This document shows, one piece after another, positions 99 through 13,526 of a DNA stretch of 13,526 nt (its first letter is position 1; every line of letters begins with the position of its first letter). The notes below the pieces were generated by a model that saw nothing but the letters and a program-made list of their open reading frames with translations, was not told the DNA's origin and did no database searches. The DNA is from a virus, in the UHGV virus genome UHGV-1806156. The stretch is one strand, 5' to 3'. The position numbers and the translations under genes are program-made.

Positions 99-437
99 GC
101 AGACTGTGATGATGTGACTTATATCTATGCGTATAACAGCCTCCGCTGTTTACGCTCTTTGTGTGGGTCCGGCGAATGCGTCAGCATGAGGCCCACAATG
201 TGGACCGCTGCCGAAAGCTTGCCAGCGCCGGAAGGAGGCAGCAAAGAGTCTCCCGCGCGCATGTGTGGGCGTATACGTAAGATATACATTCATAAATCCA
301 ATTCTAGGCCCATAAATGGCCTTCTGGCTGCATTAACTAGTGTGAGTAGTGCAATTGCATTACCTGACCTCTAAATCGCGTTAGAATTGATTTTAGAGCG
401 CCTAAGGCAAAAAGTGCTCTCCCTCCCTTGTGGGCCA

Positions 438-912: not shown

Positions 913-1128
913 ATGGCTAAAACCGGACCGATAAGCCAGCTGGTAAACTGGACTACTGACGAAATCGTCGAGAACGTGCTTAAAGGTAACTTTCGAAAAA
1001 CTTCCGTTTATGCATTTATTCGTAAACACAAAGGAGAATATCCACACATTGAAGCGGCAATTTTAGAACTGAATCGTCTCCGCCTTGAGCGTGAGCTGGC
1101 TAAATACACCAACAACATTAATAAATAA
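913..1128 (+). CDS. Hypothetical small protein, 71 aa
   Basis: ORF with AGGAGA RBS 7 nt upstream of ATG 913; first gene after a long non-coding region. No recognisable family. Confidence 0.55.
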   Translation: MAKTGPISQLVNWTTDEIVENVLKGNFRKTSVYAFIRKHKGEYPHIEAAILELNRLRLERELAKYTNNINK

Positions 1129-1141
1129 CTGTGGGGGAACT

Positions 1142-2038
1142 ATGGCAAGTAATTACGGGGAGGTTTTTAATCCCCATTTCGAACGCCTCATTCAGTATAC
1201 TTTTGATAAACCAGTTGCAACAACAATTGCTAATAAAAAGACTGGAAAAACAAAAGAAAGATTTAAGTTAGACCTGACGGAGGTTACAATTTATGGAAAA
1301 ATGGCAGGTTTTCATTTAAACGGGCAAGAAATATTTATCTCAGAGCAGACCTTAGCAAAAATATGTGGAGTGAGCGATAGAAAAATCCGTGATTCGATTA
1401 AATCTCTAGAAAATGCCGGGCTTATTTCTAAAGATAATCGGAAAGGCATGTCTAATATTTACAAACTACTAATTACTCCTTCACAGGTTTGCAAAATGTG
1501 TGACGCTCAAGGAATACAACCTATGAGCAATGCAGGTGGTGAAGATAAACAGCCTCAGGAAGCCCCAAAACAAGCCGCACAGCAAGCTAAAAAGGCTAAA
1601 GTAGTGCAATTGCCTACCCAAGACACTAAAGCGCCTCAAATTAACGCTGTTAGTGACAAGCCACGCCGGGGCCGTCCTGTGAAAGATGTAACCGATGGAG
1701 GGTGGATCGCCCTGGGTGAGAGTGAGGCTAAAGGCATAATGCGATCACTGTGGGAAAGCAAATACAAAGATTTAAACAAACGTCGCCCGATCCTTTTGTC
1801 AAAGATTCAGGAGGATTTTTACACCACAGAAGAGGTAAGCCGACATAAAGGGAAAATAGAGGGTGAAATCTGGAAACCGGAAGAATACTGGCATTTAACC
1901 AGACCTGTGTTTATTTTTGCAAATAAGCTTATTGGGATGGGATTTGAAATATTGTTAGATAAAACCTGCGGAGATTATCCCGAAATATTGTGGAGAAATG
2001 TTAGAAAAAATAAAAAAGGCATTTTAGAGTTTAAATAA
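1142..2038 (+). CDS. Putative replication initiator-like protein with winged helix-turn-helix, 298 aa
   Basis: ATG at 1142 preceded by GGGGGA RBS, right after the stop of the 913 ORF; the track's 1085 start is an upstream in-frame extension. The segment FISEQTLAKICGVSDRKIRDSIKSLENAGLISKDNRKG resembles the wHTH of phage and plasmid replication initiators. Function from motif recognition only. Confidence 0.45.
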   Translation: MASNYGEVFNPHFERLIQYTFDKPVATTIANKKTGKTKERFKLDLTEVTIYGKMAGFHLNGQEIFISEQTLAKICGVSDRKIRDSIKSLENAGLISKDNRKGMSNIYKLLITPSQVCKMCDAQGIQPMSNAGGEDKQPQEAPKQAAQQAKKAKVVQLPTQDTKAPQINAVSDKPRRGRPVKDVTDGGWIALGESEAKGIMRSLWESKYKDLNKRRPILLSKIQEDFYTTEEVSRHKGKIEGEIWKPEEYWHLTRPVFIFANKLIGMGFEILLDKTCGDYPEILWRNVRKNKKGILEFK

Positions 2039-3767: not shown

Positions 3768-4004
3768 ATGAATACCTACGAAAAGATTTATCAAAAACTG
3801 GTTAAGGACTCCGAAGACACGCCCGAAGGGGTGACAGTAGGTCACCTGCCAGAGGCAGCGAAAGAGGGGGCCACCATTATTAAAAGTGGCTCCCACACAG
3901 AAGGCCTCTCAATCGAAGAGCTGGCGGAGAAATATAATATTGATAAAGAGGCCCTGAAAAGGGCTATTTCATTATCAAAATCTTTAAGACAGGGCGAGGT
4001 ATAA
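3768..4004 (+). CDS. Hypothetical protein, 78 aa, translationally coupled between the acidic protein and the tape measure gene
   Basis: Starts 1 nt after the preceding stop and ends 1 nt before ATG 4006. Confidence 0.45.
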   Translation: MNTYEKIYQKLVKDSEDTPEGVTVGHLPEAAKEGATIIKSGSHTEGLSIEELAEKYNIDKEALKRAISLSKSLRQGEV

Positions 4005-4005
4005 A

Positions 4006-6153
4006 ATGGCAATGAAGGAAGTAGCCAGACTAACAAACGTTATTTACTGGGACTCTGATAAATCCTCCTGGCGAAAAGAAGTTAAACGGCTTGAGGATTA
4101 TAAAAAATCCTGGAAGAAAGCTACCGACGATATAGCTAAAGCTGATTTTAAATCTAATCAGGCTGTGCTCAGAACACAAAGAACACGCGCTAAGGTGGAA
4201 GAGCAGATAGCCAGAGCTCAGAGGAAACAACAGGAAGCACAGAAGAAACAACGTGCTCAGGCTGTCAGCCGTCTGACCGGGGGCAACAATGCCGAACTTA
4301 ACTCTATGCGCAAGTTCTACCAACAACAAGCCAGAGAAGCCGCCAGACAACAAAAACTGTTAGATCGTAGTGTTGGAGATGTTCAGCACAGAAAAGCACG
4401 TGTAGGGGCCAACAGTGCACGAATCAGCAGCATGTTTGATGGCTCCCTGGTTGCTCAGTTCCAGGGGCGCATTCAAAGAGTTAATGCTGATTATGCTAAA
4501 GGGGCTATAAACCTGCAGACCTATAATCAGAGGATGGCCCGACTCAGATCTGAAATGAAGATGGCAACAGCCGAAGCCGGAAAATTCCAGAGCAGACTAG
4601 ACAGAGCTGCGGCCGCAGGCTCCAGGCTGCATGACAACCTGGGGAAACTGAATTCCACACTGGGCAAGATAGCCATTGGCCTTACTGCCGCTGGCTGGGG
4701 TGTTCAGCGTGCTGTTAGTGGTGCTATGGGTAGCCTTGCAGATCGCAACAGTGCTTATTTCGGCTTAATGTCACAGAACAAGGATGATAAATCAAAAACT
4801 GATCAGCAGATGGCTTTTATCAAGAACACAGCCTACACCTACGGGATGGATCAGCGTGAGATGGAAGGCGGCTACATGCGCTTTGCTGCAGCTACCCCCA
4901 CCATGAAGGAATCTGATAAGCAGGCTCTCTTTGAGGCTATGGCTATTAAAGGCCGCTCAGTGGGTGCTACTGGCGAGCAACAGAACAGGGCGCTTGTTGC
5001 GGTCCAACAAATGGCTTCAAAAAATAAAGTCATGGCGGAGGAGCTGCGTGGGCAGCTGGCAGAAGCCTTTGCAGGCTCACAACAGGACTTCCAACAGGCC
5101 GCTATTGATGCCGGAATCATCAAAAATACCCAGGAATTCGATAAAGCCCTTAAAGATGGCAAAATCACCCTGGACAAGCTACTTCCTTCCCTAGTGAAAA
5201 TTTGGGGTGCTGCAAAAGAAACTAAAGCTTTTGCTGAATCCATGAAACAGCCAGAAGTAGCAATGCAGCGCATGAAAAACAGCTTTAACGAGCTGGCGAT
5301 TCAGTTTATGGGTGTTGTGGATCCTGCGGATGGCGTTATTAGCTTATCTGAATCTCTGATCTCCATCTTTGAAGACCTCACCACTGATATGGACGGCAGC
5401 GGGAGCGCGGCAAAACAGTTCGGTGAGGCAGTCGGGTCTGCCATGCGTGAGATCATGTATTGGGTAGGCTTCGCTAAGGGATATATTGAGGTCAAGGCTA
5501 AAGAGTTCGGCATGACCGGATCAGAGGTTGGCGAGCTTATCGGGAAACTGGTAGTCGGCTTAGCTGGTCTGAAAGTTATTACCACACTGCTTTCCCCTCT
5601 AACCGGATTTGTTTCACTTGTCACCCAACTGATTTCTCTGATAGGCAAGATTCCAGGTCTGGGCAATCTCGTTAAGGGTGCTGGCGGGGCAGTCGCTGGA
5701 AGCCCAACAACAGCATTAGCCGCTGGCAGTGCCGCAGGTGTGGGTGTTGGTGTCGCTGGCGCACTAGGCGCTAAGACGGTAGGTGAGAAGTTCAGAGGAT
5801 GGATGCAAAGCAAGGCTGATCAGTTCGGGGAGTGGGCTAAATCTAAAGGCCTGCTTAGCGATGAACAGGACGCTATGACCAAACCGGGGGCCTATAACCA
5901 TAGCTACATCAACAAGGGAGCTTCCTTTAATCCATATCCAACCATTAGCCCTTCACGTCCTACTCCTAGCACTGGTACGGCTATTCAGAATGGCGGATAT
6001 CAACCAGTCCAAGTAAATGTAGCCCCACAAGGTGAGATTTCCGGCAAATGGGAGATAACCATCGATGAGGGGGGAATTGCCAGGGTGATCCAGAAGGAAG
6101 TTAGCGATCAGTTGGATTGGAAAGCCACACAGGAATCTAACCAGCTTTTCTAA
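4006..6153 (+). CDS. Phage tail tape measure protein-like, 715 aa
   Basis: Long Q/R/K/A-rich helical N-terminal region, a central segment that reads like a tape-measure domain (AAATPTMKESDKQALFEAMAIKGRSVGATGEQQNRALVAVQQMASKNKVMAEELRGQLAEAF), and a Gly/Ala-rich hydrophobic block (LAGLKVITTLLSPLTGFVSLVTQLISLIGKIPGLGNLVKGAGGAVAG...). Recognised by eye, not by search. Confidence 0.6.
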   Translation: MAMKEVARLTNVIYWDSDKSSWRKEVKRLEDYKKSWKKATDDIAKADFKSNQAVLRTQRTRAKVEEQIARAQRKQQEAQKKQRAQAVSRLTGGNNAELNSMRKFYQQQAREAARQQKLLDRSVGDVQHRKARVGANSARISSMFDGSLVAQFQGRIQRVNADYAKGAINLQTYNQRMARLRSEMKMATAEAGKFQSRLDRAAAAGSRLHDNLGKLNSTLGKIAIGLTAAGWGVQRAVSGAMGSLADRNSAYFGLMSQNKDDKSKTDQQMAFIKNTAYTYGMDQREMEGGYMRFAAATPTMKESDKQALFEAMAIKGRSVGATGEQQNRALVAVQQMASKNKVMAEELRGQLAEAFAGSQQDFQQAAIDAGIIKNTQEFDKALKDGKITLDKLLPSLVKIWGAAKETKAFAESMKQPEVAMQRMKNSFNELAIQFMGVVDPADGVISLSESLISIFEDLTTDMDGSGSAAKQFGEAVGSAMREIMYWVGFAKGYIEVKAKEFGMTGSEVGELIGKLVVGLAGLKVITTLLSPLTGFVSLVTQLISLIGKIPGLGNLVKGAGGAVAGSPTTALAAGSAAGVGVGVAGALGAKTVGEKFRGWMQSKADQFGEWAKSKGLLSDEQDAMTKPGAYNHSYINKGASFNPYPTISPSRPTPSTGTAIQNGGYQPVQVNVAPQGEISGKWEITIDEGGIARVIQKEVSDQLDWKATQESNQLF

Positions 6154-6655: not shown

Positions 6656-7114
6656 TCAGCCTCTCCCAACATTTGACCAGTATTTGATTGCACCGATCAA
6701 ATCATCATAGTGGCGCATTGCATCATTGAAGCCTTTATAGCTTGCCCATTGTGGGGAAACCTTGTTATTGCTGAATTGCCCACTAATCAGGATAGTCTCC
6801 AGAATGTCGGCATATCGCTTACCAATACGCTTTCTGACGGCCTCAGAGCTCCCACCCTTTACGATTGCATTAATCAGGGCTTTTGTGTGTCTCAGGCTCT
6901 CATAGAGCATTGCAGCGTGGGCAGATTCCATAAAGGAGCGCTTAGGCAAATCACCCCACCCCTCAGAGTGGATAGCCGCCAGTGTGGCGTAATTCAGGCC
7001 GCTATAGTGCTTTCCGTCATCCCAGCCAACCGCTACACCTTCCATCTGTGAGAGCTCTTTATGCAGCTTATCCATCATGCGCTTGTCTATGGTGCAACGG
7101 ACTTTCGGACTCAT
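6656..7114 (-). CDS. HK97 gp10-like head-tail (neck) family protein, 152 aa
   Basis: Segment GVAVGWDDGKHYSGLNYATLAAIHSEGWGDLPKRSF fits the pattern I associate with the HK97 gp10 family. GGAG RBS upstream; ATGA overlap with the preceding gene. Confidence 0.45.
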   Translation of the reverse strand: MSPKVRCTIDKRMMDKLHKELSQMEGVAVGWDDGKHYSGLNYATLAAIHSEGWGDLPKRSFMESAHAAMLYESLRHTKALINAIVKGGSSEAVRKRIGKRYADILETILISGQFSNNKVSPQWASYKGFNDAMRHYDDLIGAIKYWSNVGRG

Positions 7115-7914
7115 TTGTTGATCTCCGTGATGTCATCAAGCAACATGTTGGCCTTATCAATCATCGTTTCGTGGAATTCATTCGACACAACAGACTTATC
7201 ACCTGCGGCAATCTTTCCAGCTGCCTCTCCCTGTGCATATTCCCCGCGATGCTTAGCCCTGGTAGATTTCGTAGCAGCATTGCCAGCGTTACTACCCTCT
7301 TTAGCACTGTTAACAGCACCCTTTTGCTGTGTTTTATTCACCTTCTTACTGTTAGTGAAAACTCCGGCATTTTCGACCATCTTCACCTTGAAGGTGCGGA
7401 ATTCTTCAAAGGTGCAATCGATAGTGATGCAGTCACCGGAGGAAGAGCTACGCTTAACTTCACATTTCGTCATGATGAAGTTCTCAAGGAGTCCGGCATC
7501 TTCACTCACCAGGCTAACCAGCTGGCGCTTGTCTCTCATTTCCATAAGTGCCTGAACAGCGGCAGCAGGGCGCATAGATTCACGGGGATTATCTGGATCA
7601 GTGTTCCGGTCGATGTAGTTCTCTTTCCGGATAATGTGAGGGGAAGAGGTAATAATACCCGTAAAGCTGACAGATTTATCTTTAATGACGGCATGGTCTG
7701 ACATGGTGGTGCCATCTTCTACTGCATAGCTCGACTTTTCGACAGGGAACGAATAACGAACATCAGAGATAGAGTCAAAGAAGATAGCCACATTATCGGT
7801 ATAGTTGAAGCCATCCATTATATTTTTGTTTTGTGAATATCCCCCACACATAACAGTGAATGCGGGAGATCTCGACTCAGCTTGTTTTGCAGCTGTCAGA
7901 GCATCACTAGCCAT
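7111..7914 (-). CDS. Hypothetical protein, 267 aa (start placed at the ATG at 7914)
   Basis: Minus ORF 7111..7941 begins at a GTG; the in-frame ATG at 7914 has GGAGG 10 nt upstream. Normal amino-acid composition, unlike the Cys/Ser/Leu-rich plus-strand ORFs it overlaps. Confidence 0.55.
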   Translation of the reverse strand: MASDALTAAKQAESRSPAFTVMCGGYSQNKNIMDGFNYTDNVAIFFDSISDVRYSFPVEKSSYAVEDGTTMSDHAVIKDKSVSFTGIITSSPHIIRKENYIDRNTDPDNPRESMRPAAAVQALMEMRDKRQLVSLVSEDAGLLENFIMTKCEVKRSSSSGDCITIDCTFEEFRTFKVKMVENAGVFTNSKKVNKTQQKGAVNSAKEGSNAGNAATKSTRAKHRGEYAQGEAAGKIAAGDKSVVSNEFHETMIDKANMLLDDITEINK

Positions 7915-8042
7915 AGTAAACATGCCTCCAAATTGGTCCACTTCATGGATTTGGCTAAAGCCAAACCTGCAAAAGATGCAGGCAAAATAGAACTTATCGT
8001 TGCCCTGCGTGAATTCTGATAAAAAGACAGGGCTATCTATCG

Positions 8043-8383: not shown

Positions 8384-9418
8384 TTATTTAGCCTTGGCAG
8401 CGGCGGCGGTGTTTTTAACACTCACTTTCACCACAACTTCAGGCATCATGTTCATGAAAGCATAAGAGGATTCAACGAAGATTTCGCGTTTGCCTCTGGA
8501 CTCTTCCATATACATGAAAGCTTCACGTGCAGCGCCGTTTGCCAGCTTCAGGTTGCGAGCGCAAGGGCCGAAAAATTGAGTATAAACGCCCACCATATCG
8601 CCTAACGCATGCGGCTGGAACTGTGGGACTAGATAAGCAGTATTCTCTGGCAGACTATCCATTTGCACCACACGCAGGGCTAAGCCCGGAATGCGGAAGG
8701 TCGGGAAGCCCGGCAGAATATCCTCAGGGAACATCAGACCTTTGTCGGTAATGTTCTGATTGCCGAACAACAGCACTTTACGGAGCAGTTCATCAGTCTG
8801 AATAGCGGTAAACAGTTCAGCACGGCAGAACAGGGTGAAACCACGCAGGGCACGAACGACACCACGCTGTTTAACCTTGCTCAGTGCAACCAGGTCCTGC
8901 AGCTGTTTAAGGATATCTTTAGCTAGATCCACTTCTGAAGTGGTTTGCTGTGCGCCCAGCAGTTCGCACACATTCAGTTCTTTACCCTTGGTGAGGATAA
9001 TTTTGTTCTCAAAGAGAGCAAGCTGGCGTGCTTCTTCGTGGGTCTGGCGTAAGCCTTCGCCAAGCTGAATAACACGACGAGCGGTTACAGACTCTAGATT
9101 CTCTTCGGAATCTTTGCCCGGAACACGGATACCCTGCCAGTCAGAAGGATAAATAGCACTTGATGCGGCAGTGAATGCCATATCACCCGTGCCCGTTTCA
9201 CGCTCATCTGCGGTAATGGTCGCCATCTGTTCACCGTAGCGCGGATACTGACCGAAAGCGGTTTGTTTCACCTGGCGAACTTTGTCATATTCAAATTTAA
9301 AGGTATTGCACAGAGCAGTAGTGTTGAAGATATCCATTGCAGAAATAATCATGTTATCCGGCGGGATATCTTTAATCAGACCACACAGATCGCGAACTTC
9401 GAATTCTTTCTTAGCCAT
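8384..9418 (-). CDS. Major capsid protein, lambda gpE family-like, 344 aa
   Basis: ATG at 9418 with AAGGAGG RBS 8 nt upstream; the track's extension to 9517 has no RBS. N-terminus FEVRDLCGLIKDIPPDN fits the L-x-G-x-[IV]-x-x-x-PP pattern seen in gpE-family capsids. Size (lambda gpE is 341 aa) and a small beta-rich gene directly upstream agree. Confidence 0.6.
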   Translation of the reverse strand: MAKKEFEVRDLCGLIKDIPPDNMIISAMDIFNTTALCNTFKFEYDKVRQVKQTAFGQYPRYGEQMATITADERETGTGDMAFTAASSAIYPSDWQGIRVPGKDSEENLESVTARRVIQLGEGLRQTHEEARQLALFENKIILTKGKELNVCELLGAQQTTSEVDLAKDILKQLQDLVALSKVKQRGVVRALRGFTLFCRAELFTAIQTDELLRKVLLFGNQNITDKGLMFPEDILPGFPTFRIPGLALRVVQMDSLPENTAYLVPQFQPHALGDMVGVYTQFFGPCARNLKLANGAAREAFMYMEESRGKREIFVESSYAFMNMMPEVVVKVSVKNTAAAAKAK

Positions 9419-9429
9419 TTTCAACCTCC

Positions 9430-9765
9430 TTATTGTGCAACACGCAAATCGCCATTGCTGGCAGCAACAACAGCGGCTAAGCCGTCTTTGTCCACATAGG
9501 CCGGATTGATGTAGCAACCTTTGTTCGCAACAACGATAAAGGAATCACCAACTTCAGCACGTTCTACAACCAGCAGCGGAGTTTTATCTGTGTGCGTTGC
9601 TTTAACGAAGGTCTCAACCTCGCCAGCCTCAGTCACCACAACAACAGTGCCAGCCGGAATCTCAGCCTTAACTTTGTTTTTAACTTCAACGTCGCGAATA
9701 CTAAATTGCTCATCTGCGGCGTATGAAATGATGTGTCCGCGTGTGCGGATAGTCATATCTCTCAT
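9430..9765 (-). CDS. Putative head decoration protein (lambda gpD-like), 111 aa
   Basis: AGGTGA RBS before ATG 9765. Small, beta-rich (Val/Thr/Ala/Gly), immediately upstream of the capsid gene as in lambda D-E. Assignment is positional and compositional. Confidence 0.4.
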   Translation of the reverse strand: MRDMTIRTRGHIISYAADEQFSIRDVEVKNKVKAEIPAGTVVVVTEAGEVETFVKATHTDKTPLLVVERAEVGDSFIVVANKGCYINPAYVDKDGLAAVVAASNGDLRVAQ

Positions 9766-10093
9766 TTGATCACCTGCGATTTAAATTAACTCCCCTCAAA
9801 GGGCTCAGGTATAACCTCTCAAACCACGACAGGCTCGGGCCGAAAAGTTATGCCGGAAATCTAAAGGGGGATTGATATAAGGAGAGGGAGATAGCCCCGC
9901 ACCGTCCAAGCGGGGGCTATTCCACATGGGGAAACCAACAACAGTTGGCTGATAGTTCACTGCATGGTTACAGGTTGCTAGAGAGCACTATCACGAAAGG
10001 CACTCCCCCGGATCAGTTCAGGCTGCGGTCACATCAGCGGGGAAATACCTTTCGGGATAGCTACCCACACAGAAAACCCGCAAAAGAAAACTG

Positions 10094-10102
10094 TGTGGAT
10101 AA
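10094..10102 (-). promoter_or_regulatory. DnaA box (TTATCCACA on the minus strand) inside an inverted repeat (CCACACAG 10065-10072 / CTGTGTGG 10091-10098)
   Basis: Exact 9-mer match to the DnaA box consensus, read directly. Confidence 0.35.
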
Positions 10103-10248
10103 CTAGCCCTGTAGGGAGAATAAGGAGAATTAATCGACCACTCTAAGATGATCATGGGTAGTGTTATTTATAAGGCGGCACCGCTACCTGGTCGCCTTTA
10201 CTTTGGAGGAAAATACGGCAAATCACCTTCGCTAAATGATTCACGGTA

Positions 10249-10268
10249 TACTGTATATTATATCAGTA
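10249..10268. promoter_or_regulatory. LexA (SOS) box-like palindrome TACTGTATATTATATCAGTA
   Basis: CTG-N10-CAG architecture with flanking TA and an AT-rich core, as in gammaproteobacterial LexA boxes. Lies in the large intergenic region between the capsid operon and the small-peptide operon. Confidence 0.45.
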
Positions 10269-10546
10269 TTTACTCACATTGTCAACACCCTGATTATATA
10301 AATTCTAATAATTAGCGTAGTAACGGTATTTTCAGACTGCTATCAATCCCATCAATACGTCATCTCATCGCATCTATCATAACTTTTTCATTCGTGATAG
10401 ATATCTTTTGATCAATATCAATGTTTTCCGGGGATTTGCCCGGCTATAGTTCGAATCAAGGAAGGGGAGCATTGATAGAGACACCCAAAGGGGTGACTGA
10501 AAGTCACCTGGCATAGCCAGTGAAAGCACCCAACCGAACAAACAAA

Positions 10547-10564
10547 TCAACTTCTCGCAAAAGG
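10547..10564 (+). promoter_or_regulatory. Conserved leader motif TCAACTTCTCGCAAAAGG, 26 nt upstream of ATG 10573
   Basis: Repeated with the same spacing upstream of ATG 11115 (11089-11107); a third variant sits in the hairpin loop at 6281-6296. Confidence 0.4.
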
Positions 10565-10572
10565 TGATAGTT

Positions 10573-10695
10573 ATGGGTATCAAGAACAGTGCCAGCGCAT
10601 GGCAAAAGGCCAGGTTTCATCACCCACACATTGTTAAGGCAATTGAGGTGGTTGGAGTTTTAGCCCTGATGTTAGCTCTGTGTGTGGAGGTGTGA
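10573..10695 (+). CDS. Small hydrophobic peptide, 40 aa (MGIKNSASAWQKARFHHPHIVKAIEVVGVLALMLALCVEV)
   Basis: AAGGTG RBS before ATG 10573; C-terminal hydrophobic helix. Below the ORF-track cutoff. Confidence 0.35.
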   Translation: MGIKNSASAWQKARFHHPHIVKAIEVVGVLALMLALCVEV

Positions 10696-10696
10696 G

Positions 10697-10777
10697 ATGG
10701 GCAAAGGAGGCAAAGCATTTTTAATAGGTCTGGCTATCCTGGATGTTCTACTAATCATGATTAAGCGGAGTTTATGA
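10697..10777 (+). CDS. Small hydrophobic peptide, 26 aa (MGKGGKAFLIGLAILDVLLIMIKRSL)
   Basis: ATG 10697 starts 1 nt after the previous stop, with AGGTG just upstream. One predicted TM helix and a basic C-terminus. Confidence 0.3.
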   Translation: MGKGGKAFLIGLAILDVLLIMIKRSL

Positions 10778-11088: not shown

Positions 11089-11107
11089 TCAACTTCTCGC
11101 AAAGGGG
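11089..11107 (+). promoter_or_regulatory. Second copy of the leader motif (TCAACTTCTCGCAAAGGGG), 26 nt upstream of ATG 11115
   Basis: 15/15 identity with the copy at 10547 over TCAACTTCTCGCAAA, same distance to the start codon. Confidence 0.4.
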
Positions 11108-11114
11108 TACCACT

Positions 11115-11800: not shown

Positions 11801-13063
11801 TTAATCCGTTTTATGCCACAACCGCCCGGTTGACAGAGTAAGATAGAGTGTGTAACCCTCTTTCGTAATACCAATAAAATCAATAGTTTAGCTCAATTGG
11901 CCTTTTCTCTATTTTTGTCAAATTTAACATACCCTCAAAAACTGCAAAATCTGGCTGCAAGATTATCTGCAGCTGGATTTCTTGCGCCTCAATTTGTGGT
12001 ATCACCCTGACTAGTTTGTGCATAAATTGAACAGTTTTTAACATTTCCTCCTCACCTGGTAACCACACAAAAAGCTAAAAACGAGGCACAGATAATCTTA
12101 GAGGCCTGTTTTCTTGTTATCACTCTGGTAACGTCGTAGAAGTGATTTTGATGAAAGATGACCTACCCTATTACACCCCCATTTTTTGTTATCACAATTG
12201 CATCCTGTGCGGTGTATGGCTATGTGCTGAAAGCGGTCTTATGTGTGGGTGTCAGAAATATCCATTAGCGGTATTAATACCCGTCGGAGATTCGTCTGAG
12301 GTGCCAGGCAGGCGCTCCCCCACCTCCCTTTTTTCTTCTAACAATTCTCAAATATCACACCACTGCCCACCACGTTGCTATTATGTTAATTCTTAAGCTT
12401 TGCTGTATGTTGTGCACATTATTTATTCAGGTGGCTGTACGTAAATTCTGTGCCCACTGATCATGATTTTTAAATCAGATTTTGTAGTGCGCTTTATTAG
12501 TGTAGATAAGATCTATTATGTTAAATGCATCTCTCTCAACACTTAAAATCAATGACTTAGAGGTTAGGATGCACTAACACCCCACACAGCACATTAGACA
12601 TATAGATGTCTATACCCCACATTTTTGATTGTTTTGTAGTCATTCCCCTGATCATTTAACCAGTATAGTTTGCTCCCTGCAGACCACAAAATCGGAATTT
12701 ACATCTGATTAACATAATCTGTTAGCATGATCACCATTACCCACACAACAATAACCACATGTAAGCCTCTTCAGGCAATTTATCGGCGTGTTGGTGTGAA
12801 CAGTCTTTCATGTTCTTTATGTATTCATTGTCCTGTGTGAGGGAAGGATGGACTGCCCCAGGGGCCATACTTATGATGCCCGGTCAACATACCTGTCGAT
12901 AAAATCAAAGGGTGTTGATCTGCATATTTCCCACACATGAGAGGAAATCAAAGCAAAGAGAGAGGAGAGAGGTTTGTTAGTCAAAATAGGTCAATAAGGG
13001 TGTATTTCCACACAGACATGATGAGATAACCTGTCGGTATTTCCTACAACTCTTGCACATACC

Positions 13064-13341
13064 CCGGAAGATTTTTCCGGTGTCTCCCACCTGTGAAGAA
13101 TTTTCACACCTGTAAATCCATACAGCACGGTAAAAACTACCGCACCACCTGTGAAAATATTTTACTACTCCCTTTAGTCATACCCCTTTCAGTCATACTC
13201 AGGCACCACACCCCGGTAAATATTTCCCTACCACCCCGGAGAATTTCTCCGGTGTCCAAGCTGTATCCAATACATACCCCGGAAAATTTCTCCGCACTAC
13301 TACGGAAGATTTCTCCGGTGTACCCCGGAAGATTTCTCCGA
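13064..13341. repeat. Iteron-like array of at least 8 copies of a 17-bp quasi-palindrome (consensus about CCGGARRATTTCTCCGG)
   Basis: Copies at 13064-13080, 13236-13252 (perfect palindrome CCGGAGAATTTCTCCGG), 13279-13295, 13302-13318 and 13325-13341, the last three spaced exactly 23 bp apart. Related variants at about 13094-13108, 13150-13164 and 13214-13226. Confidence 0.6.
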
Positions 13342-13428
13342 CTAATAAATAAAGTAATAGACCACACAATAGATCCCCCCTAACCCCCAAGGGGAATGGG
13401 GAGGGATCAGAGAGTGGGGAAGGTTTTC

Positions 13429-13526
13429 TAAGGGAAAAGCTTAACCCACAAATGAAAGCCTAAAGAGCATGAGCGACTCTTCAGGCAATCTGTGTGGGGA
13501 ACATCGGAGCAGTATGTGAAGTATGA
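13429..13526. repeat. Right copy of the 98-bp direct repeat
   Basis: Matches 1-98 with one mismatch (C at 13482 vs T at 54). Confidence 0.9.

Follow-up and report, generated by a model that had tools for sequence, protein, structure and literature searches.

A candidate LexA-controlled promoter and structured leader RNA in the long gap upstream of the capsid operon of a satellite-like plasmid

Introduction

What is encoded in the 807 bp that separate two divergent operons in the viral genome UHGV-1806156, a sequence of 13,526 nucleotides that we analysed in full and refer to as the window? The gap, at positions 9766-10572, is bounded on one side by the gene of a 111-amino-acid (aa) protein that opens a capsid operon (9765-9430, minus strand) and on the other side by a 40-aa open reading frame (ORF) whose ATG is at position 10573. 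A preliminary description, made from the sequence alone, had read the gap as a divergent control region centered on a DnaA box and several palindromes, and had suggested that it may encode a structured RNA or act as the main switch of the element. The analysis reported here leans, by a modest margin over an even chance, toward a divergent regulatory hub, in which a LexA-controlled leftward promoter (P_L) and a structured leader RNA gate the capsid operon of a satellite-like plasmid.

The window corresponds to one unit of a circular plasmid of about 13.43 kb, since bases 1-98 are repeated at positions 13429-13526 with one mismatch, as fits the overlap of a circular assembly. The comparisons below use 25 distinct related sequences, all from Escherichia coli, which fall into two clades. 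Clade A is window-like, and clade B comprises six sequences, in which the major capsid protein is 82% identical and the flanking protein 65% identical to those of the window.

Results

The gap carries no conserved protein-coding sequence

The proposal of a divergent control region was supported by the relatives, as no ORF in the gap is conserved across them in any frame and the annotated relatives have no coding sequence there. We considered two candidates and discarded both. Several relatives have an open antisense frame at 10377-10583, but frame shifts interrupt this ORF in L008, L026, L031 and L033, and its protein is not conserved in clade B. A putative leader peptide, encoded by a seven-codon ORF that starts with UUG behind a Shine-Dalgarno-like site, is present in some clade A members only. 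Scanning for tRNAs and tmRNAs gave none, and the search of the whole window against Rfam gave zero matches at the gathering thresholds. In E-value mode the best match in the region was the mgtC leader, with 21.5 bits against a gathering score of 48 bits (E 0.14), and nothing credible was found. The C4 family is covered by this search provided that it is included in the release used, which is presumably the case.

All the motifs listed in the preliminary description are present in the gap, with small offsets in their coordinates. These include the GC-rich pair AGCCCCGC (9893-9900) and GCGGGGGCT (9910-9918), which is part of a hairpin at 9887-9923, the 8-bp inverted repeat ATCTATCA (10372-10379) and TGATAGAT (10395-10402), and the pair GGTGACT (10492-10498) and AGTCACC (10502-10508), located about 6 nt to the right of the approximate span of 10485-10502 reported for it. 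Perfect 8-bp inverted repeats number five in the gap, compared with 1.5 ± 1.5 in dinucleotide shuffles, and 4.7% of the shuffles reach five. Because such repeats are near the level of the shuffles, a lone palindrome of this length is unremarkable. There are also longer imperfect repeats, with 23-nt arms at 9988-10010 and 10038-10060 and 12-nt arms at 9950-9961 and 9982-9993, and the imperfect arms of 19-23 nt are kept in the relatives. As shown below, the palindromes do exist, but several of them are arms of RNA helices and GGTGACT/AGTCACC belongs to a dispensable cassette and not to a fixed operator.

A predicted consensus promoter overlapped by a LexA-like box points toward the capsid operon

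The promoter scan predicted P_L as a sigma-70 promoter that matches the consensus at 12 of 12 positions and carries an extended -10 element. It is directed leftward, toward the capsid operon, with a predicted start near 10250, about 485 nt ahead of the gene of the 111-aa protein. The arrangement of TTGACA, a 17-nt spacer and TATAAT (TAAAAT in clade B) is kept in all 25 relatives. P_L is of the same class as the TTGACA/TGGTAAAATA promoters found ahead of the structural genes of Vequintavirus (phage naam), and it has a near twin in the window at 750-790 (TGTTGACAAT-N13-TGATAAAATATA).

The LexA-like box mentioned in the preliminary description (TACTGTATATTATATCAGTA, 10249-10268) turned out to be strong and to overlap the -10 element of this perfect promoter. 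We scored LexA sites by a heterology-index matrix of 17 E. coli operators, for which the training operators range from 0.45 to 8.9. The box has an index of 4.3, within that range, and is the top site in the window. None of 200 shuffles contained a site that scored as well, the best index among them being 6.4. Its sequence is close to the 20-bp operator TACTGTATATATATACAGTA, with the characteristic CTG-N10-CAG. The box and P_L together thus have the sequence features of an SOS promoter, at which LexA would be expected to bind, and SOS control is likely for this plasmid.

The leader downstream of P_L is predicted to fold, on one strand

RNA initiated at P_L would start with a long leader that ends in a GC-rich hairpin before the capsid operon (Table 1). 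Folded as minus-strand RNA, the 381-nt stretch from 10250 to 9870 has a free energy of -126.3 kcal/mol and a z-score of -3.1, which none of 100 shuffles equalled, compared with a z-score of -1.3 for the plus strand. The homologous leader of clade B has a z-score of -4.0. The RNAalifold consensus is likewise more stable for the minus strand (-38.1 kcal/mol) than for the plus strand (-20.8 kcal/mol). In an alignment of 18 sequences the 47 consensus pairs were paired in 99.6% of the cases, compared with 46-48% when the partners were slid, and double changes were found in 10 leader pairs, compared with 0-4 in the slid controls. Many of the one-sided changes (UA to UG, AU to GU and CG to UG) are valid on the minus strand only and would give A-C mismatches on the plus strand, and three G-U pairs are invariant across the alignment. 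This asymmetry fits the leftward direction of P_L. The leader blocks, with 80% identity between the clades, are at least as well conserved as the flanking genes, which have DNA identities of 72% and 67%. Compensatory changes and stability beyond that of shuffles are found here on the same single strand, as expected of a structured RNA. The earlier suggestion of such an RNA became very probable with the minus-strand covariation, the G-U asymmetry and the difference in folding between the strands, and we consider it probable that the RNA is indeed made.

Within the leader, the stem of the hairpin at 10172-10198 covaries between the clades (GC to CG), and its loop, AGGUAGC, is identical in all sequences. 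This hairpin is among the few stretches that BLAST could align between the clades (80% identity). The isolated 46-nt segment at 10165-10210 (-10.3 kcal/mol, z-score -0.63) is no better than shuffles, and the support for the hairpin is therefore comparative and not thermodynamic. A search for targets of the invariant loop gave just an 11-nt identity in the gene-free region of the phage, which is at chance level (about 0.3 expected). The hairpin at 10054-10109 was paired in 90% of the cells, compared with 28-45% when slid. In the long helix at 9988-10060 both partners have changed in a compensatory way in three pairs, of which one is changed in L033 alone, and two U-G pairs that would be A-C mismatches on the plus strand are invariant. 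The first bases of this helix overlap the hairpin at 10054-10109, so that the two are alternative pairings; more generally, the upstream helices (10054-10109, 9988-10060 and 9950-9993) overlap one another and alternative folds exist. The small hairpin at 9935-9948 is formed in the minimum-free-energy fold and shows a compensatory A-U to G-C change within clade A (CCAAC/GTTGG versus CCGAC/GTCGG).

The last structure of the leader, the terminal hairpin at 9923-9887, has a free energy of -21.3 kcal/mol as RNA, and its stem covaries in L033 and in clade B. Its homologue in clade B, a hairpin of 15 bp with U7AUUAUUA behind it, was called as an intrinsic terminator. This clade B hairpin lies on the strand of the promoter, about 370 nt further on, and 65 nt ahead of the first gene of the capsid operon. 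In clade A the hairpin may be a terminator, perhaps together with Rho, or an element of processing or stability. The leader resembles an attenuator in that a predicted promoter and a leader without an ORF lie on the strand of the operon, and it has the features of a terminator-attenuator only partly. A pairing of GCUAUCC with GGAAUAGC, which could serve as an anti-terminator in clade A, has no conserved counterpart in clade B and was rejected. The stretch between the terminal hairpin and the capsid operon, at 9766-9886, is a hot spot of insertions, which are 75-110 nt long in the relatives; in L033 and L034 the insertion includes a reversed copy of the double-hairpin cassette described below.

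The DnaA box is part of a predicted leader hairpin

The exact DnaA box that headed the preliminary description (TGTGGATAA, 10094-10102) is present and is the sole exact copy in the window. The inverted repeat around it is also there, but its size had been understated, as its arms are of 19 nt (10054-10072 and 10091-10109) and not of 8 nt. In the sense of the RNA, the box sits in the 5′ arm of the hairpin that runs from 10109 to 10054. It is not conserved, being exact in 15 of the 25 relatives, changed in four and absent from all six clade B sequences. The variants are CATGGATAA in L030-32 and TATGGATAA in L033, and in both the consensus is destroyed. The RNA pairing survives the changes that destroy it, as C-G and A-U pairs become U-G and G-U wobbles; in clade B, without the box, an equivalent hairpin can form from other bases. 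Since relatives that lose the box keep the pairing through G-U, DnaA binding at this site is probably incidental at best, and the box is probably a by-product of the leader hairpin and of a plasmid-wide CCACACA motif. The idea of a structured RNA or main switch in the preliminary description is right in part, and its emphasis on DnaA is wrong.

A replication origin would be expected to have several clustered boxes, together with initiator sites and an AT-rich unwinding element, and the gap has a single box. DnaA boxes with one mismatch number 12 in the window, compared with 3.4 expected, and cluster at 12017-12902, near the iterons. The origin is likely located there, considering the iterons at 13060-13349, the near-consensus boxes and the Rep-like gene.

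The core of the DnaA box coincides with another motif, CCACACA/TGTGTGG, found 21 times in the window compared with about 1.7 expected, mostly in non-coding DNA (for example at 63, 160, 262, 10065 and 10092). Further sites are at 12582, 12741, 12931 and 13491. A longer form, CTCTTCAGG-N3-5-TGTGTGGG, is common to the window and to a 2.5-kb gene-free region of phage naam, where four copies of CTCTTCAGG are found in a stretch of 1.2 kb.

The right third of the gap resembles an operator array

Upstream of the rightward operon, the repeated TATCA(A/T)T half-sites and palindromes at 10340-10477 look like operators arrayed about a rightward promoter that is weak or depends on an activator. Both clades keep the TATCA cores, a -10-like hexamer and the CCGGG/CCCGG repeat, and the HTH_7 protein encoded in the rightward operon is a candidate regulator of the array. 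A conserved 30-nt block precedes the 40-aa ORF, which is the sole ORF conserved in all relatives. The core of this block, TCAACTTCTCGCAAA(A/G)GG, precedes the starts of both the 40-aa ORF (10551-10568) and a 195-aa ORF (11093-11110), its first copy being invariant in both clades, and may act as a translational operator. The two small hydrophobic peptides at the head of the operon could act on membranes, for instance in the manner of a holin, a toxin or an exclusion protein.

A double-hairpin cassette in the rightward 5′ untranslated region is dispensable

The GGTGACT/AGTCACC palindrome is part of a cassette of two hairpins (Table 1) that is an insertion, found at the 10479-10526 site in seven of the 25 relatives. 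Its boundaries are ambiguous by about 7 nt, as CACCCAA is repeated at the junction; this 7-bp sequence is the only junction repeat at this site. The plasmids carry zero to three copies, with none in any clade B sequence and none in several clade A plasmids. A second copy in the window, at 3815-3865, lies in frame within an ORF at 3768-4004, just upstream of the tape-measure gene, and this ORF encodes 78 aa with the cassette compared with 61 aa in cassette-free plasmids. In this copy the loop ATA is changed to AGA, and the second hairpin is kept through a G-C to C-G swap; in-frame copies lack the TAG stop codon of the loop. Other copies were found in L006, inside the Rep gene, and in L033, where the copy is reversed and lies upstream of the 111-aa gene. 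Where copies differ, the changes compensate each other, with C-G replaced by T-A in the first hairpin and G-C by C-G in the second. As would a mobile cassette, the element varies in presence or absence, occupies multiple sites and is found in both orientations. No transposase or homing-endonuclease gene was found on the plasmid. The cassette is dispensable and mobile or recombinogenic, and it is no essential operator, pac site or origin. We discarded an essential pac or ori function in view of the many family members without the cassette.

A stretch of Vequintavirus DNA matches the cassette at 90% identity. It is located in a 2.5-kb region that is dense in repeats and free of genes, and each of 33 records has a single copy. 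In phage naam (99860-100160; L002 2800-3100) the cassette directly follows an 18-bp perfect inverted repeat. It lies there between two perfect 20-bp direct repeats, ATGCAAACGAATGGCATGGC, among five AAGGCAACTAT repeats and with GTGTGTAAAC repeats nearby. This region of phage naam looks like an unannotated origin or packaging region, and an Rfam search of the phage gene-free region gave nothing. A second element is common to the window (190-262) and Vequintavirus non-coding DNA (phage naam, L003 4750-4813), with 85% identity over 62 nt. It has a compensatory stem, GCTGCC/GGCAGC versus ACCGAC/GTCGGT, around a conserved loop, GAAAGCTTGCCAGCGCCG.

The gap belongs to a plasmid with satellite-like gene content

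Near-identical DNA was found in seven of 5,426 complete E. coli genomes, with identities of 92-95% by megablast and 86-94% in a distant-mode plasmid search. It was always located on plasmids of 13.2-13.7 kb (in one case a 39.6-kb trimer) and never on a chromosome. Searches of the GTDB species representatives and of IMG/VR gave nothing related and no more distant relatives, and a scan of metagenomes added just four clade A contigs. The literature searched held no publication describing this family of plasmids of about 13.4 kb, which seems to be undescribed.

The virion proteins of the plasmid are distant homologues of proteins of rV5-like (Vequintavirus) phages, with 24-51% aa identity. Genes for a terminase, portal, sheath or tube were not found among the plasmid genes. 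As a Rep-like gene and iterons are accompanied by some virion homologues without terminase, portal, sheath or tube, the gene content looks like that of a plasmid-borne satellite of rV5-like phages.

Table 1. Features of the gap and of the surrounding plasmid.
Feature	Position	Strand	Details
Spacer and 5′ untranslated region	9766-9886	minus	before the 111-aa gene; Shine-Dalgarno AGGUGAU
Terminal GC-rich hairpin	9887-9923	minus	contains AGCCCCGC/GCGGGGGCT; last leader structure, about 120 nt before the capsid operon
Structured leader RNA, about 360 nt	9887-10250	minus	predicted; from P_L to the terminal hairpin
Small leader hairpin	9935-9948	minus	CCAAC-UGUU-GUUGG
Long leader helix	9988-10060	minus	CUAUCCCGAAAGGUAUUU... 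/ ...AGUGCCUUUCGUGAUAG; 16-23 bp
Leader hairpin with 19-nt arms	10054-10109	minus	18 of 19 pairs formed as RNA; loop with conserved UUUUGCGG; DnaA box in one arm
Exact DnaA box	10094-10102	minus	TTATCCACA
Leader hairpin with invariant loop	10172-10198	minus	AAGGCG-ACC / GGU-CGCCUU, loop AGGUAGC
LexA (SOS) box	10249-10268		TACTGTATATTATATCAGTA; covers the P_L -10 hexamer (10262-10257) and the predicted +1
P_L sigma-70 promoter	10285-10257	minus	predicted; TTGACA 10285-10280, 17-nt spacer, TG-n-TATAAT 10262-10257
Operator-like array	10340-10477		repeated TATCA(A/T)T half-sites and three palindromes
Palindromes of the array	10372-10402; 10416-10477; 10428-10443		ATCTATCA/TGATAGAT; TATCAATG/CATTGATA; CCGGG-N6-CCCGG
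Double-hairpin cassette, 48 bp	10479-10526	plus	GGTGAC-N5-GTCACC, then CTGGC-AUA-GCCAG; in the 5′ untranslated region of the rightward operon
Conserved 30-nt block	10543-10572	plus	ACAAATCAACTTCTCGCAAAAGGTGATAGT; before the 40-aa ORF; 27 of 30 columns identical across both clades
Small hydrophobic peptides, 40 and 26 aa	10573-10695; 10697-10777	plus	open the rightward operon ahead of the HTH_7 gene
HTH_7 protein, 86 aa	10797-11057	plus	HTH_7 match of 27.5 bits
Rep-like protein	1085-2038		HTH_36
Tape-measure protein	4006-6153
Neck/tail-completion protein	6656-7114	minus
Dit-like tube-initiator	7111-7941	minus
Major capsid protein	8384-9418	minus
111-aa protein	9430-9765	minus	first gene of the capsid operon
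Six 23-bp iterons	13060-13349		TACCCCGGAAGATTTCTCCGGTG; upstream of the Rep-like gene, adjoining the near-consensus DnaA boxes (12017-12902)

Discussion

According to the reading that we favor slightly, the capsid operon would be silent in the plasmid state, held by two gates. The first would be repression by LexA of initiation at P_L, in most members of clade A, and the second would act on elongation, through termination or processing within the structured leader. Expression of the capsid genes would require SOS induction together with read-through or anti-termination, presumably at helper infection; more loosely, read-through would follow SOS induction, helper infection or both. In its right third the gap would provide an operator-like array and the 5′ untranslated region of the small-peptide/HTH operon, with the cassette inserted in the latter. 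From the observed motifs, conservation, covariation and strand asymmetry we infer transcription, LexA binding, termination and the trigger. For the leader RNA gating the capsid operon in this way we see roughly equal chances either way. A further-reaching version, that the leader RNA is a helper-sensing switch, is unlikely in our view. In that version the conserved loops or the terminal hairpin would be the target of a factor that the helper encodes or induces, and transcription would then read through into the capsid genes. The cassette and the 190-262 element would be short mobile cis-elements moving between helper and satellite, and the plasmids would form an undescribed class of plasmid-borne satellites of virulent Vequintavirus phages.

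Several points weigh against the two-gate scheme. The LexA box is intact in 14 of the 25 relatives, but its CTG is changed to ATG in five (index 10.6) and it is absent in the six clade B sequences (index 14.5); since it is degenerate in the former and absent in the latter, SOS control is not universal in the family. In the window and in clade A the stem of the terminal hairpin is stronger than in clade B, but its tail is C/U-rich without a run of U, and it was not called as a terminator. We found neither a conserved leader peptide nor an anti-terminator pairing that would rival the terminal hairpin in both clades. The leader structure was tested on the same alignment from which it was derived, and few independent lineages stand behind the covariation (the clade A subgroups, L030-32, L033 and clade B). 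On the rightward side the scan gave no consensus sigma-70 match, only a TATAGT -10 element (10445-10450) with a poor -35, so that this promoter is weakly defined. Finally, the dependence of the plasmid on a helper is deduced from its gene content.

The main rival explanation is that the P_L transcript is a stand-alone trans-acting RNA of about 360 nt, involved in immunity, in action against the helper or in regulation of the rightward operon, or a precursor from which small RNAs are processed, in the manner of P4 CI and P1 C4. Expression of the capsid genes would in that case come from elsewhere, for example from a helper-dependent promoter. A very strong promoter and an efficient-looking terminator in clade B do delimit a discrete RNA, and the invariant loop AGGUAGC and the conserved loop motif UUUUGCGG suggest specific recognition surfaces. 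UUUUGCGG is complementary to CGCAAAA(G) in the near-invariant block before two rightward ORFs, and the 16-23-bp size of the long helix could suit RNase III. However, the duplexes of the leader with the two ribosome-binding-site blocks are no better than those with shuffled targets, of which 29% and 38% were as good, and there is no Rfam match to such an RNA at E ≤ 10 in the region. Moreover, the leader lies directly upstream of the capsid operon and on the same strand in every relative. We therefore regard a stand-alone RNA as unlikely, to about the same degree as the helper-sensing switch.

Other explanations place the function in the DNA. The palindromes and the DnaA and LexA boxes could be protein operators of a bidirectional switch in which RNA structure is irrelevant, and the exact DnaA box, the strong LexA box on a promoter, and the half-sites and palindromes of the 10340-10477 array, which are found in both clades just upstream of the gene of an HTH_7 protein, agree with this. 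Yet conservation across 9887-10250 tracks base pairing and not sequence, with compensatory changes in arms that are 30-90 nt apart and a G-U asymmetry confined to one strand, and the DnaA box is lost in 10 of the 25 relatives with the pairing kept. As an account of the whole gap this is improbable; operators are plausible for the right part, where the two-gate scheme already includes them. More improbable still is a cis-acting site, either a secondary origin or primosome assembly site, or a pac-like site (the cassette) copied from the helper. The near identity of the cassette (about 90%) to a Vequintavirus gene-free region that could be an origin or packaging region speaks for such a site, and strand-specific hairpins are likewise a typical trait of sites of single-strand initiation. 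The absence of the cassette from clade B and several clade A plasmids, and its varying copy number, position and orientation, mean that it cannot be essential. The DnaA box is not conserved either, the iterons and the Rep-like gene are elsewhere, and the leader hairpins are bracketed by a consensus promoter and a terminator. Lastly, the gap might be largely non-functional spacer with chance palindromes, tolerated in a small and rarely selected plasmid. It does contain many indels and insertions, and its 8-bp inverted repeats are near chance. This is the explanation that we disfavor most and consider very improbable, given a promoter that is invariant in 25 of 25 relatives, blocks that are 80% identical between clades although the flanking protein is 65% identical, the covariation, and folding that is significant on one strand only.

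The arrangement resembles several known systems, with differences from each. Operon I of the Staphylococcus aureus pathogenicity islands (SaPIs), which contains morphogenesis and packaging genes, is reportedly LexA-controlled, as described by Ubeda and colleagues in 2007. As in that operon and at SOS promoters such as those of the colicin operons and uvrA, the capsid operon lies behind a promoter with a CTG-N10-CAG box over the -10 element and the start. The box of the plasmid is similar to the uvrA/ssb operator, also in having TCAG in its second half-site. Unlike in SaPIs, the host is E. coli and not Staphylococcus, the element is a plasmid and not a chromosomal island, the box is missing or degenerate in some members, and a leader of about 360 nt intervenes. 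In the satellite P4 an operon is gated by premature termination in the leader. In P4 (P_LE and CI RNA), P1/P7 (C4) and N15 (CB) such termination is under the control of an RNA derived from the leader. The plasmid shares with them a satellite or plasmid lifestyle, a constitutive-looking promoter, a structured leader and a proposed termination before an operon, and here too regulation would act on elongation and not solely on initiation. Its leader differs from those RNAs in being about five times longer, in having no Rfam match, and in that no repeated complementary boxes of the seqA/seqB/seqC type were identified in it. Intrinsic-terminator attenuators, riboswitch-like leaders and the processive antitermination RNAs put (of HK022) and EAR likewise combine a long covarying leader with alternative pairings, and a terminator hairpin before the first gene. 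In contrast to those leaders, we found here no leader peptide, no recognisable ligand or tRNA motif and no alternative pairing that reaches the terminal hairpin, which in clade A lacks a U-tract.

The cassette recalls the Rickettsia palindromic elements (RPEs), the miniature inverted-repeat transposable elements (MITEs) and repetitive extragenic palindromic (REP)-like sequences, and the promoter-stem-loop (PeSL) cassettes of T4-type phages, as its copies of 48-51 bp, each of adjacent hairpins, are present or absent between near-identical plasmids, occupy several sites in both orientations and include in-frame copies. Unlike RPEs and MITEs, it is much shorter, lacks a target duplication and clear inverted repeats at its ends, and is common to a phage and a putative satellite. 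The plasmid as a whole is similar to the capsid-forming phage-inducible chromosomal islands (PICIs), which encode a capsid protein of their own, and to satellites of virulent phages such as the PLE of Vibrio cholerae with ICP1, in having its own replication initiator and iterons and homologues of some helper virion proteins, with no terminase or portal found and most tail genes missing. It differs from them in being extrachromosomal, in carrying tape-measure, tube-initiator and neck homologues, in having as putative helper a virulent myovirus of 137 kb, and in being known here from its genes.

The rV5-like phages are used in phage therapy and biocontrol, and the shared elements point to unstudied cis-elements of these phages. 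Short elements about 85-90% identical to Vequintavirus non-coding DNA also offer a handle on the exchange of DNA between helper and satellite. A predicted leader RNA of about 360 nt without an Rfam family, coupled to a LexA-covered consensus promoter before satellite capsid genes, is new, as are the short structured elements common to the plasmid and its putative helper. If the two-gate scheme is true, the gap would be a compact, testable case of a plasmid-type satellite that keeps costly capsid genes off through an SOS promoter and a structured leader. The annotation of a DnaA box, attractive but misleading, is corrected here. According to a 2025 review, only one satellite was demonstrated to be a plasmid (PMC12282955).

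Additional observations

The 39.6-kb sequence L009 (NZ_CP043822.1), designated a plasmid in RefSeq, is a head-to-tail trimer of the 13-kb unit, in which the capsid and baseplate genes are disrupted in one copy; this may reflect either a true concatemer or an artefact of assembly. Elsewhere in the window, several tandem consensus promoters of the TTGACAAT type form a cluster upstream of the rep operon, at 430-790 on the plus strand. The iteron region includes a further LexA-like palindrome at 13108-13127, ACCTGTAAATCCATACAGCA, which is weaker, with a heterology index of 9.0.

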